From the NCBI RefSeq assembly GCF_053078305.1, contig NZ_CP166879.1: 64,000 bases of DNA; one strand, 5' to 3'. The notes beneath the pieces were generated by a model, which worked only from the letters and a program-made list of their open reading frames with translations, was not told the DNA's origin and ran no database searches. Positions 34,961-38,859 of this stretch are shown in pieces (the stretch's first letter is position 1; each line of letters starts with the position of its first letter). The position numbers and the translations under genes are program-made.

Positions 34961-35449
34961 TTACCAGTCGAAAGTGGGCAGGTCCGGCAGACATTCAGCG
35001 CTGACATCCAGATGAATGAGACTGACGCCATAACGTTGGATGAGTGTGACAACCAGACGACGGAACGTTTTTGACAGCCCCAGGCGTTTAAGCCGCAGAA
35101 CCGGATATGACCACGCATCGGTACGTAACAGATATCCGCTACCTGTGAAATGAATCCATTCTGATTCACCGAAGTCACTGGTCTGGTGTGACAGCGAGTA
35201 CAACCAGGCGTTATCCTTTTCCGTGATATGTGCGGTACTGCAGCGTATGCCGGCAAGGGTTGCAAACGGTGGTAGTGTGCAGGTTGACTGTTGGTCGGAT
35301 TCCTCCACCACGCGGAGTGAATAACCGTTTTCAGCGACATTGTTAATCAGTTCAGCGAGATTAACACCATCAATGTCAACGACAATGCGCCCCATGTTCA
35401 GCGCCCGCACGTTAATGCTGTCGGCTTCCAGCGTCAGGGAAAGTTTCAT
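34961..35449 (-). CDS. YeeW-like hypothetical protein
   Basis: 162-aa ORF whose start overlaps the toxin gene stop by 4 bp; family assignment is by position and recollection only. Confidence 0.45.
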   Translation of the reverse strand: MKLSLTLEADSINVRALNMGRIVVDIDGVNLAELINNVAENGYSLRVVEESDQQSTCTLPPFATLAGIRCSTAHITEKDNAWLYSLSHQTSDFGESEWIHFTGSGYLLRTDAWSYPVLRLKRLGLSKTFRRLVVTLIQRYGVSLIHLDVSAECLPDLPTFDW

Positions 35450-35823
35450 CGTTTCGCCTCCGGATGCTTACCCCGGGTAATGTTATTTACCGTTCTGTAA
35501 TTGTCGCGGGTCATCAGGCCGGTCGCCCGGCGAGCCCGGAGGATATCAATACTGTTTATTAACTGAGAGCGGGGACTAGTGCTGAACCGGGGCTGGTCGG
35601 TACGCACCAGCGCGTATTTTTCAACGAGAAAGTTCACCGCGTCACACAGTGAAATGCCTGCCTCAATATGCTGCTCAATCACACGTTCATCGGAGAACGG
35701 TGTGTCATTTAGCGTGAGGCCGTAGTGCTGGTCCAGCAGTCGGGTGAGCAGTGTCTGCCAGATGGTTACTGGAGATGGGCAGCGCGATGCCTCCCGTACG
35801 TGTGTGTCGGGTAATGTGTTCAT
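35446..35823 (-). CDS. CbtA/YeeV/YkfI-family toxin
   Basis: 125 aa, MNTLPDTHVREASRCPSPVTIWQTLLTRLLDQHYGLTLNDTPFSDE..., close to the CbtA family as recalled. Confidence 0.85.
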   Translation of the reverse strand: MNTLPDTHVREASRCPSPVTIWQTLLTRLLDQHYGLTLNDTPFSDERVIEQHIEAGISLCDAVNFLVEKYALVRTDQPRFSTSPRSQLINSIDILRARRATGLMTRDNYRTVNNITRGKHPEAKR

Positions 35824-35912
35824 ACTGAAGATTTTCCTGATATGCAGAGATGAAAAATGGGAAAGTGGCGTGGTGAAAACACCAGGCCGGAGCAGAAGGT
35901 TATTCTGATGAT

Positions 35913-36281
35913 TTACTTTTTCGTTTCGGGCGTCGGATAAACAGCCATATAAACGTAACCACAGGAGCCGAGGGTGTCGGCTTCGCAGGTCAGTCCTCTG
36001 GCATACAGCGTGACGGTATGCTGATGGCGGGGATTCAGTTCACCGCTGGTGAGCATGAGTTCCAGTTGTTTCATCAGCAGCGGAAAGGCCTGGTCCAGAT
36101 GGTACGCATCCGCGTCGCTGAACCGGCCTCTGATACCGGCGCGGTCGGCAAGGTAATACAACCGGTTACCCTCCTGCACCAGACGGGCGCCAAAACAGGG
36201 TGTTATAGTGCAGGGCAGCCCCCACCAGGGGCGGTTGTTATAGTCGTCGGGATAATTTGTCTCATGGTGCGTGTCTGACAC
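35913..36281 (-). CDS. CbeA/YeeU/YfjZ-family antitoxin
   Basis: 122 aa with RPWWGLPCTITPCFGARLVQEGNRL signature; immediately upstream of the toxin. Confidence 0.85.
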   Translation of the reverse strand: MSDTHHETNYPDDYNNRPWWGLPCTITPCFGARLVQEGNRLYYLADRAGIRGRFSDADAYHLDQAFPLLMKQLELMLTSGELNPRHQHTVTLYARGLTCEADTLGSCGYVYMAVYPTPETKK

Positions 36282-36443
36282 GATAAAGTCCTCACAGAAA
36301 ATCGGTTAAGAAGGGGTTAACGATGACAGGTCAGCCGGTGTGGAGACCGGCTTCGGTGAAGATGTATTCATTGATGAGAAGGGCCTCATCCACAGCGGCG
36401 TCTGAGGTCATCTGGTCGTACTCGTTTTCCGGGTGACGGAACA

Positions 36444-36665
36444 TTAGTTCAGAGTGACGCTCATCAGCCGGACATACGGGCCAAAACTGTCCTTACGGCG
36501 TTCAGCAAACACGGCCAGCACACCGGGAATATCCTGCACTTCACGACCGGTATACGCCTCAGCACTGCCGTGCCAGCGGTACTTACCGGTGCAGAACGGA
36601 AATAGACGGGATGCAGGATGCTGTTGGTGAATACGCATGGCTTCACCACGGGTGATAATTTTCAT
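36444..36665 (-). CDS. YeeT/YkfH-family small protein (DUF987)
   Basis: 73 aa, MKIITRGEAMRIHQQHPASRLFPFCTGKYRWHG..., matches family as recalled. Confidence 0.7.
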   Translation of the reverse strand: MKIITRGEAMRIHQQHPASRLFPFCTGKYRWHGSAEAYTGREVQDIPGVLAVFAERRKDSFGPYVRLMSVTLN

Positions 36666-36733
36666 AATGGGATACCTCTGAAGACAGAAGATAAAAGTGA
36701 AAACAGGTGTGATGTGATTGTGGCGGTGACGGG

Positions 36734-37225
36734 TTAAAGCAGACCATGTTCGGCAAAGGAGAAAACCTGGCTGCCACCGACTATCAGATGGTCCGGCACC
36801 CGGATATCCACCAGGCCCAGTGCCTGTACCAGACGTTCGGTGATAAGGCGGTCTGCCTTACTGGGGGTGACTTCACCGGACGGGTGATTGTGCGCCAGCA
36901 CCACGGCAGCGGCATTGTGGTACAGGGCGCGTTTAATCACCTCCCGGGGATGGACTTCTGTGCGGTTGATGGTGCCTGTGAAGAGGGTTTCACCGGCAAT
37001 CAACTGATTCTGGTTGTTCAGATACAGCACCCGGAATTCTTCACGCTCCAGTCCAGCCATGTTCAGAATCAGCCATTCCCGTGCCGCTCGGGTGGAGGTG
37101 AAGGCCACGCCGGGTTCATGAAGATGGCGGTCCAGGGTTTTCAGGGCCCGCAGAATGAGACTGCGCTCGCCGGGCGTCATCTCTCCGGGCAGAAAGGAAA
37201 GCTGCTGCATTGTCCCTGCCTCCAT
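36734..37225 (-). CDS. RadC-like JAB-domain protein (YeeS/YfjY/YkfG family)
   Basis: 163 aa with HNHPSG JAMM-type motif. Confidence 0.8.
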   Translation of the reverse strand: MEAGTMQQLSFLPGEMTPGERSLILRALKTLDRHLHEPGVAFTSTRAAREWLILNMAGLEREEFRVLYLNNQNQLIAGETLFTGTINRTEVHPREVIKRALYHNAAAVVLAHNHPSGEVTPSKADRLITERLVQALGLVDIRVPDHLIVGGSQVFSFAEHGLL

Positions 37226-37771
37226 TCAGTCAATGATGCGCATAATGGCGCTGCATTCCGGATGCTGCAGGGCGTAATCCCGCAGCCGGTAATAATGGAC
37301 CGTCATGGCATAACACTCTGTACGACAGGCATGATGACTGTACGTCATCAGACAGGCAGCAATGCCGGCAGCTTCCGGACTCATTTCAGCGCGGTTACCG
37401 TTCATGGCATTGAACAGTACCCATGTTTCGTCATCATCGTCATCCGGTTCAGGGGCCATAAATGCCCCGCCGTTGTTCAGGGTGTACAGATTCCAGATGC
37501 CCCCGCAGTAGTCTTCGCACAAACGGTCCATCCAGCCGAAGACACGGGGCTCCAGGGTCACCCACTGTGGAATGAGGCTAAAATGCTGCGGCCAGAAGCT
37601 GATGCGCTGTTCATCAGGGACTATGGTGGCAACCAGTTGTTGCAGGCCAGTCTCCGGTGCACAGGCTGAAGAGGTGGTGTTCTGAGACAATGTTTTCATG
37701 TGTGAAATCCTTGTAATGTGAATAAATGAGAGGAAATAAAGGCCGGGGGCTGACAACATCACGTTCATCAC
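37226..37771 (-). CDS. antirestriction protein (ArdB/KlcA-like; YfjX/YeeS-type)
   Basis: 181 aa with acidic EPDDDDDE stretch; abuts the RadC-like gene. Confidence 0.7.
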   Translation of the reverse strand: MMNVMLSAPGLYFLSFIHITRISHMKTLSQNTTSSACAPETGLQQLVATIVPDEQRISFWPQHFSLIPQWVTLEPRVFGWMDRLCEDYCGGIWNLYTLNNGGAFMAPEPDDDDDETWVLFNAMNGNRAEMSPEAAGIAACLMTYSHHACRTECYAMTVHYYRLRDYALQHPECSAIMRIID

Positions 37772-37792
37772 TGACCGTGAGACCCGGCAATA

Positions 37793-38038
37793 TCAGGGAT
37801 GAATGATATTCGGCTGAAATTCCGGACAGCCGTACGCGTAACCGTTCCGGTCACAGACGGATGGCCAGATGCCATTGCCTGTACTCAGTCTGCACAGACT
37901 GAGTTCTCCGGGACGGTAAAGCAGACGGGTACACCAGGCGCACAGGTCATCATCAGAAATGGAACGACATCCCGGCAGCGCCTCCGGGGCGTCGGGTGAT
38001 ACGGGTGCCTGAATCACGCCTTCAGGGATATGTTTCAT
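37793..38038 (-). CDS. small conserved hypothetical protein
   Basis: About 81 aa from Met MKHIPEG; ATG shares one base with the stop of the upstream DUF945-like gene. Confidence 0.4.
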   Translation of the reverse strand: MKHIPEGVIQAPVSPDAPEALPGCRSISDDDLCAWCTRLLYRPGELSLCRLSTGNGIWPSVCDRNGYAYGCPEFQPNIIHP

Positions 38039-38859
38039 CAGCGCATGCTCTCCAGCAGCGTTTCTGCCATCACCCACAATGCGCGGTTGAGCTTAATATC
38101 GGTGTCGATGCTGTGAATGGCACGGGTGTGGATACGTTTTCCTTTTGCACTGCGACCGGAAATCCCGCCTTTCAGCATATTCTCCTGGATGGTCTGATAA
38201 GCACTCCACAGGTCCTTACCGTAATCCTCCCGGCGTCGCGGTGTCAGAATGTCGGCGGTAGTGATGGGCTGATGTTCGTCACCATAACGGTAAGTCAGTG
38301 CCGCCTGTGCCAGCGCCTGGCGTGCCGGTGGCGGCAGGACCAGCGACTGCATGGCATCACGCTTCTCCTCTATCCGGTCAAACACGCCCACCACCTCGTA
38401 AGCCCCTTCAATGACTCTGTCCACCACATTTCCCCGGTGCGGAACACGCACTTCCCCCAGAGACTGACCACAGACGCATCCGTTCTGGCAGACGAACCTG
38501 AAGTAACCCGGCAGCATCTGGTAGCTGGAGGTACCGTCATGGGAGTTGAGCAGAATAATTTCAGGGACATGTTCTCCGTTTATCTCTCCGGCCCGCCGCA
38601 GACGCAGCATGTGTTTTGTGTATCCCCGGCGGCCCGGGTCGCGCACACGGGTCTGGCAGGCGAAGAATGGCTGAAAGCCTTCCCGCTGCAGGCTTTCCAG
38701 CACAGTGATGGTGGGGATGTACGTATAGTTCTGGCTTCGGGACGTGTGTTTCTCTTCCCCGAAAATCCCCGGCACATGGTGCATCAGCTCTTCATATGTC
38801 AGCGGACGGTCACGGCGTATCTGGTTTGCAGCATAACCAAAACGACTTGCTAATCGCAT
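38038..38859 (-). CDS. DUF932/DUF945-family protein (YfjQ/YafZ-like)
   Basis: 273 aa; recalled family typical of CP4-type islands. Confidence 0.7.
   Translation of the reverse strand: MRLASRFGYAANQIRRDRPLTYEELMHHVPGIFGEEKHTSRSQNYTYIPTITVLESLQREGFQPFFACQTRVRDPGRRGYTKHMLRLRRAGEINGEHVPEIILLNSHDGTSSYQMLPGYFRFVCQNGCVCGQSLGEVRVPHRGNVVDRVIEGAYEVVGVFDRIEEKRDAMQSLVLPPPARQALAQAALTYRYGDEHQPITTADILTPRRREDYGKDLWSAYQTIQENMLKGGISGRSAKGKRIHTRAIHSIDTDIKLNRALWVMAETLLESMR

Follow-up and report, generated by a model that had tools for sequence, protein, structure and literature searches.

We analyzed a 64,000-nucleotide (nt) stretch of an Escherichia coli chromosome (RefSeq assembly GCF_053078305.1, contig NZ_CP166879.1; here, the window), the glc region of which is 99.4% identical to that of several strains. 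We focused on a block of minus-strand genes encoding a DUF932 protein, an ArdB/KlcA-family anti-restriction protein, a RadC-like protein, YeeT, and a type IV toxin-antitoxin (TA) pair of the CbeA/CbtA type. The identity, intactness, order, and location of these genes are matters of observation. The block, the TA pair, and the anti-restriction protein are already known from islands of K-12, CFT073, and Shiga toxin-producing E. coli (STEC).

Gene content of the block

Six minus-strand open reading frames (ORFs) lie within 35446-38859, with exactly the limits given in the initial annotation of the window, and the ORF listing together with comparison to homologs showed that all six are full length. 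The first gene of the block (38038-38859) codes for a DUF932 protein of the YafZ/YfjQ family with 273 amino acids (aa) (Pfam PF06067; E-value, 4.8e-52). It has an AAGGAG ribosome binding site 7 nt upstream, and its product is 74% identical to each of K-12 YafZ and YfjQ by BLASTP and has no PDB match by sequence. This protein had been labeled DUF945-like; at E ≤0.01, however, Pfam gives only DUF932, and we rejected DUF945, which earlier GenBank records use as the product name of this protein, as the family. The remaining five genes encode an ArdB/KlcA-family anti-restriction protein (37226-37699, longest ORF to 37771; 157 aa; PF03230 Antirestrict, 3.1e-37), a RadC-like JAB/JAMM protein corresponding to full-length YeeS (36734-37210, longest ORF to 37225; 158 aa; PF04002 RadC, 1.5e-44), the DUF987 protein YeeT (36444-36665; 73 aa; PF06174, 5.4e-40), a CbeA/YeeU-type type IV antitoxin with a GTG start codon (35913-36281; 122 aa; PF06154 CbeA_antitoxin, 5.5e-54), and a CbtA/YeeV-type toxin (35446-35823; 125 aa; PF06755 CbtA_toxin, 2.8e-61). 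Because the Pfam matches cover the full length of the domains at E-values between 3e-37 and 3e-61, the identification of the six genes is not a matter of chance.

The block is longer than 35446-38859. Between the genes for the DUF932 protein and ArdB, we identified an ORF for a Cys-rich small protein of 81 aa (37793-38038, minus strand; here, ORF81), the ATG of which overlaps the DUF932 stop codon. Downstream of the toxin gene, the minus strand carries the gene for a full-length, 162-aa YeeW (34961-35449; Pfam DUF5983_N, 4.4e-29, and DUF5983, 7.5e-21) and a gene for a small protein of 65 aa (34752-34949). The latter owes its DUF957 label to related genomes (87.7% identity to the "DUF957 domain-containing protein" assigned by the Prokaryotic Genome Annotation Pipeline [PGAP] in FDAARGOS_944) and had no match in Pfam or NCBIfam scans. 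The last gene (33826-34667, minus strand) is a frameshifted DUF4942 gene, for which the Pfam match is limited to profile positions 1 to 101 of 190 and tblastn with an intact 280-aa ortholog as the query gave two high-scoring segment pairs in different frames.

The initial annotation described tight stop/start coupling between successive genes. This did not hold for the genes it listed, which are separated by gaps of 15 to 338 nt (ardB to radC, 15 nt; radC to yeeT, 68 nt; cbeA to cbtA, 89 nt; yeeT to cbeA, 162 nt; DUF932 to ardB, ~338 nt, or 93 nt once ORF81 is counted). True overlaps occur only with the two genes that had not been listed, i.e., at cbtA/yeeW (ATGA, 4 nt) and DUF932/ORF81 (TGATG, 1 nt). 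As judged from the sequence, the DUF932 gene and ORF81 are translationally coupled, and so are cbtA and yeeW.

Location at pheV

Along the plus strand, the glc operon is followed by yghJ and the genes gspC-M for the type II secretion system T2SS-beta, which extend to 33545, and foreign DNA begins thereafter. Sequence reading and alignment identified an attR-like direct repeat of the 3' end of the pheV tRNA-Phe gene at 33694-33716 on the minus strand (22 of 23 nt, with one G deleted). Beginning at the repeat and proceeding toward gspM, the DNA corresponds to K-12 sequence (the pheV-yghD spacer, the terminator, and the end of yghD) with only two substitutions; this stretch includes the 150 nt that flank the repeat, which match the spacer. 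The sequence thus identifies the repeat as the attR-type end of a pheV island, beside gspM. The proposal that the block lies at the distal end of a tRNA-associated island is therefore borne out by the pheV repeat followed by the native pheV-yghD spacer. A tRNA search found no intact tRNA gene in the window, and we place the pheV tRNA gene and the integrase gene beyond it. An Rfam scan of 33000-48000 gave no match within the block; its only results were the IsrC/IS102 RNA, which lies upstream of flu, and a P9 match below threshold at 33659-33733, which corresponds to the pheV tRNA fragment plus terminator.

Two other E. coli strains carry the same block at this locus. Using megablast, we found the block in 5,369 of 5,426 complete E. 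coli genomes, at a median of three places per genome and with a best complete-genome match of 97.7%. The same genes have been described in pheU, pheV, and selC islands of STEC (PMC6174562). The order antirestriction-RadC-DUF987-antitoxin-toxin, with DUF932 upstream, matches that in K-12 CP4-57 and CP4-6, in the two other E. coli strains, and in Serratia.

The interior of the island, as far as it lies in the window, also encodes, as in CP4-57, a YfjI-like DUF3987 protein (48089-49597, plus strand) and YagK/YfjJ-like proteins, of which there are two here (52996-53595 and 55254-55820, both plus strand) with weak similarity to the Rep/G2P family. It is possible that these proteins provide replication or nicking functions of the island, which would bear on its mobilizability.

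Comparison with E. coli K-12

The right arm of K-12 CP4-44 (yeeP-isrC-flu-yeeR-yeeS-yeeT-cbeA-cbtA-yeeW) has the same order and orientation as the genes in the window, and yeeP, the IsrC RNA, antigen 43 (Ag43), and yeeR are upstream in both. The location differs, with our block at pheV and the K-12 CP4-44 copy elsewhere. The RadC-like protein is 98.6% identical to K-12 YeeS by BLASTP (YkfG, 82%; LfgB/YfjY, 70.6%), and YeeT is 98.6% identical to K-12 YeeT. Aligned with the three K-12 pairs yeeU/yeeV, yfjZ/ypjF, and yafW/ykfI, the antitoxin is closest to CbeA/YeeU (85.2%; YfjZ, 69%; YafW, 64%) and the toxin to CbtA/YeeV (84.7% over 124 aa; YpjF, 67%; YkfI, 57%). Based on these identities, we assign the block to the CP4-44 type.

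Alignment of K-12 CP4-44 DNA with the window showed that the match covers 46445-40797, i.e., from yeeP through flu to the 5' part of yeeR, and resumes at 37186. This break, which spans 37187-40796, shows that K-12 CP4-44 is a 3.6-kb deletion derivative, and the K-12 yeeR-yeeS junction is the scar of this deletion. K-12 CP4-44 accordingly lacks the 3' part of yeeR, irmA, DUF905, DUF932, ORF81, ardB, and the first codons of yeeS. YeeR, YeeS, and YeeW have 840, 158, and 162 aa here, whereas the truncated K-12 proteins have 510, 148, and 64 aa. K-12 CP4-44 also lacks a 130-nt relic in the spacer between yeeT and cbeA, which measures 73 nt in K-12 and 162 nt here. This spacer contains a 37-codon ORF (36331-36444, minus strand), the ATG of which overlaps the yeeT stop codon. 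Its similarity is limited to 40 residues at the C-terminal end of a protein from Rhodobacterales plasmids (214 aa), which is annotated as "antitoxin of toxin-antitoxin stability system." Since the match is confined to the C terminus, we rejected the ORF as a second hidden gene, and it is most likely the 3'-end relic of a larger gene.

CP4-57 (lfgABCDE, i.e., yfjX-yfjY-ypjJ-yfjZ-ypjF) and CP4-6 (yafX-ykfG-ykfH-yafW-ykfI) have the same five families in the same order, also with a DUF932 gene (yfjQ and yafZ, respectively) upstream, and in CP4-57 the block is at the island end opposite the integrase gene. Both differ from the block described here in that the identity is only 57 to 82%, the spacers are 8 to 37 nt (15 to 162 nt here), extra genes lie between DUF932 and ardB, and there is no ORF81; in fact, K-12 has no copy of ORF81. 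The gene order common to CP4-44, CP4-57, and CP4-6 agrees with the initial description of the block as a canonical, known CP4-type distal accessory string. Altogether, we consider it highly probable that the block is the complete form of the conserved CP4-44-type right-arm accessory block (P4-like integrase family), located at pheV and ending beside gspM, and that it aids establishment and maintenance of the element.

Upstream of the block, the minus strand carries a terminator-like hairpin with a 13-bp stem and a T-run (38909-38938), located 49 nt upstream of the DUF932 start codon; it likely marks the upstream limit of the transcription unit, although it was detected by a consensus scan, which is not evidence of function. 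It is followed by a DUF905 (YkfF-like) pseudogene (38960-39169, minus strand), which is 97% identical by tblastn to the DUF905 protein of FDAARGOS_944 and has an in-frame stop codon visible in the translation. Farther upstream are irmA, yeeR, and the genes for Ag43, the IsrC/IS102 RNA, and the YeeP GTPase. The IrmA-family gene (39270-39725) lies between yeeR and the DUF905 pseudogene; the 840-aa YeeR (39801-42323, minus strand) is without any Pfam domain; and the IsrC/IS102 small RNA is full length (45585-45789, minus strand; Rfam RF00124, 252.9 bits) and located between the YeeP GTPase gene and the Ag43 gene, as in K-12.

The toxin-antitoxin pair

The antitoxin gene is directly upstream of the toxin gene on the same strand. 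Both are full-length ORFs, in line with the initial annotation, which had described toxin and antitoxin as intact. The PF06755 match covers 112 of the 112 profile positions in the toxin, and the antitoxin matches the YeeU crystal structures (PDB 2H28, 1.9e-71, and 2INW; both ~1e-72). The K-12 CP4-57 and CP4-6 antitoxins lack a 14-residue N-terminal extension that is present here. We found the exact antitoxin sequence on at least 999 public contigs and the exact toxin sequence on 670.

In K-12 CbtA, F65 is required for FtsZ binding and the R15C substitution abolishes MreB binding (PMC5624674). The FtsZ contact residue F65 is kept in the toxin described here, and the motif AVNFLVEKY is identical in an alignment of the four toxins compared. 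K-12 CbtA has Arg15; in our toxin, codon 15 (35779-35781, minus strand) encodes Cys, with Arg at position 14. Cys15 is, however, the native residue in YpjF and YkfI, both of which block elongation (PMC5624674), and Arg15 is therefore not a family-wide requirement. YkfI and YpjF are toxic and give rise to lemon-shaped cells, and their cognate antitoxins neutralize them (PMC5371832). For the K-12 homologs, growth arrest upon toxin expression and rescue by an antitoxin that does not bind its toxin have been demonstrated (PMC5624674, PMC5371832).

Some type IV TA systems, e.g., AbiE, act by abortive infection (PMC3985639), and a link to phage inhibition has been described for TA systems generally (PMC10846083). 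Along these lines, CbtA/CbeA could be an anti-phage abortive-infection system and the block a defense island rather than an establishment module. However, none of nine block proteins matched a PADLOC defense model, the neighboring genes are anti-restriction and, thus, counter-defense genes, and a phage phenotype of CbtA/CbeA was not found in the literature examined. We regard this explanation as very unlikely.

ArdB and the RadC-like protein

ArdB is identical at 155 of 157 residues to ArdB (ORF14) of PAI II CFT073 (PDB 2WJ9), the two substitutions being S/G and D/N; the match to KlcA (PDB 2KMG) has an E-value of 6.5e-20, and the K-12 homologs YfjX and YafX are 72% and 66% identical by BLASTP. 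In vivo, ArdB_CFT reduced restriction by enzymes of four Type I families 54- to 1174-fold, whereas EcoKI was not inhibited in vitro, which argues for an indirect mode of action (PMC2836571). Upstream of the 157-aa reading frame, a conserved extension of 24 codons (37700-37771, minus strand) with a GTG start codon gives a 181-aa ORF, and this extension is shared with CFT073. The PDB 2WJ9 chain is the 181-aa form, while the functional study gives ArdB_CFT as 157 aa (PMC2836571), which leaves two candidate start codons for ardB.

The RadC-like protein scored 149.5 bits against TIGR00608, above the cut-off of 133.85, and its JAMM metal motif H-x-H-x7-S-x2-D is intact (HNHPSGEVTPSKAD). Its CP4-57 paralog LfgB (YfjY) is reported to be a protease that degrades the antitoxin MqsA; lfgABCDE is reported to be a single operon and is induced by H2O2, and deletion of lfgB sensitizes cells (PMC10846083). 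The CbtA family as a whole affects oxidative-stress resistance and biofilm formation, as deletion of all three CbtA-family toxins lowers oxidative-stress resistance and deletion of the antitoxins raises early biofilm formation (PMC5371832). These observations, together with the near-universal and mostly multicopy occurrence of the block in E. coli, would fit a domesticated host stress-response module that is kept for the tuning of RpoS/MqsA signaling, oxidative-stress survival, and biofilm formation by the protease and the toxins and not for island transfer or maintenance. On the other hand, the LfgB data come from a 70%-identical paralog and not from a YeeS-type copy, thousands of conjugative plasmids, as well as islands of other genera, carry the same genes, as would be expected from element-level selection, and copy number and content vary among strains while genes decay. 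Such a role is possible but on balance not the likelier one, and it is compatible with a block that aids establishment and maintenance.

ORF81

We identified 184 homologs of ORF81, with 80 to 90 aa and 54 to 67% identity, in Escherichia, Citrobacter, Enterobacter, Klebsiella, Salmonella, Yersinia, Serratia, and Mixta. In an alignment of 22 sequences, C33, W35, C36, YRPGE41-45, C49, GY66-67, and C71 are invariant; in a set of 100 sequences, C49 alone is invariant and C33, C36, and C71 are present in ≥90%. In Yersinia and Serratia, ORF81 has the same position and the same 1-nt overlap, and Serratia has the same ten-gene order. Compared with the Yersinia and Serratia sequences, the proportion of nonsynonymous differences (pN) is ~0.30 and that of synonymous differences (pS) is 0.66 to 0.81 (dN/dS, ~0.24). 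Because pN is below pS, these data support that ORF81 is under purifying selection.

No match to ORF81 was found in Pfam, NCBIfam, PHROG, or PADLOC, and an AlphaFold2 model (pLDDT, 87) had no structural neighbor in PDB or BFVD. Larger proteins with the ORF81 core contained no informative Pfam domain except for one DUF6876 fusion, and two distant genomic contexts of the core were uninformative. Public contigs with the exact ORF81 sequence number 153, and each of the sister variants of 81 aa occurs on ~800 to 1,000 contigs; their product name is "hypothetical protein" or, depending on the source, "antirestriction protein." ORF81 is annotated in GenBank CP061233.1 and left unannotated by PGAP in two RefSeq genomes, FEX669, where the ATG is mutated, and FDAARGOS_944, where the gene is frameshifted. 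As far as sequence comparison goes, ORF81 is clearly a real, conserved small gene, and it is the only element of some novelty in the block.

The losses of ORF81 in FEX669 and FDAARGOS_944 are among the observations that would be expected if the block were an inert relic, in which ORFs are open merely for lack of time and which does nothing. The adjacent pseudogenes (the frameshift in DUF4942 and the stop in DUF905), the C-terminal relic in the yeeT-cbeA spacer, and the fact that K-12 tolerates the 3.6-kb deletion of part of the block point in the same direction. By contrast, ten ORFs in a row are undisrupted and of full length, and hundreds of contigs carry toxin, antitoxin, and ORF81 sequences identical to those in the window. 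Moreover, order and coupling are kept out to Serratia and Yersinia with ORF81 under purifying selection, and a near-identical ArdB and paralogous toxins are active upon expression (PMC2836571, PMC5624674, PMC5371832). We therefore consider an inert relic improbable.

Plasmid leading regions

Leading regions of plasmids are enriched in anti-restriction and TA genes (PMC11541004). Using tblastn, we found ORF81 homologs on 1,159 plasmids, of which 1,124 are conjugative. DUF932 homologs (~61% identical) are present on at least 5,000 plasmids, 4,448 of them conjugative. On IncL (pOXA-48-like) and IncFII/MOBP plasmids, the ORF81 homolog lies among co-oriented genes for JAB, DUF4942, Hha, DUF1380, anti-restriction, and Ssb proteins directly upstream of the mobA/relaxase gene. 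On an IncFIA plasmid, the ssb-DUF905-parB-psiB-hok leading region ends with the DUF932 gene, which is near the oriT-side traM and separated from it by one SLT gene. Thus, the leading regions of IncF, IncL/M, and IncFII-MOBP plasmids have DUF932, DUF905, ArdB/KlcA, JAB/RadC-like, DUF4942, and ORF81-like genes in common with the block, in both cases co-oriented (all on the minus strand in the block) and with TA genes nearby, although the plasmid copies are only ~48 to 62% identical to those in the block. By analogy, we infer that the CP4-type distal block may be the island counterpart of the plasmid leading-region gene pool, i.e., an establishment-plus-addiction set.

A more far-reaching proposal, which we make tentatively and consider rather doubtful as a whole, is that ORF81 (motif SISDDDLCxWC...YRPGExSxC...DGYxxxC) founds an undescribed family of small, probably metal-binding proteins and, together with DUF932 and ArdB, acts as an early establishment or counter-defense factor. 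If so, the entire distal module of CP4-type elements would represent the leading region of an island that can be mobilized, possibly with nicking by its YagK/YfjJ Rep-like proteins.

Discussion

We favor the explanation that the block is a complete CP4-44-type accessory block that serves the element carrying it. In minus-strand order, the module consists of DUF932, ORF81, ArdB, YeeS, YeeT, CbeA, CbtA, YeeW, DUF957, and the frameshifted DUF4942 gene, and it ends at the repeat of the pheV 3' end. Extrapolating from its near-identical homolog, ArdB would act against Type I restriction in vivo indirectly and not by DNA mimicry. CbtA, as its homologs do, would bind FtsZ and MreB and stop division and elongation, and CbeA would counteract CbtA at these targets, as in a type IV TA system. 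The RadC-like protein would be a metalloprotease, similar to LfgB/YfjY acting on MqsA. By analogy with these systems, the block would most likely help the element to establish in a new host by anti-restriction and to stay there by TA addiction, and effects on stress resistance and biofilm formation would be secondary.

Several observations weigh against this explanation. The toxin shares only 85% identity with K-12 CbtA, and because of its Cys15, this allele may or may not act on MreB. The flanking genes are decaying, as is evident from the frameshift in the DUF4942 gene and the stop codon in the DUF905 gene, and DUF932, ORF81, YeeT, YeeW, and DUF957 are without known function. A promoter scan gave fewer promoter-like matches than expected from shuffled sequences; the scan is, for that reason, uninformative as to the transcription units. 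Finally, we found no relaxase, oriT, ssb, or psiB beside the block, with the reservation that no dedicated oriT model search was made, and none of the inverted repeats in 33600-39400 is a long hairpin resembling the single-stranded DNA promoter Frpo. With no oriT, relaxase, or hairpin of this type found near the block, the analogy to leading regions is one of gene content alone.

For the biology of CP4-type elements, the analysis provides a clean paralog assignment, i.e., a block of the CP4-44/YeeUV type at pheV, and, because this copy is free of the deletion found in the K-12 CP4-44 arm, it is a better reference for the module. It also draws attention to a widespread, conserved gene of 81 residues that is often omitted by PGAP and is present in no family library searched. 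If ORF81 and DUF932 are indeed establishment or counter-defense factors, they would be added to the leading-region toolkit of the plasmids and islands that spread virulence and resistance.

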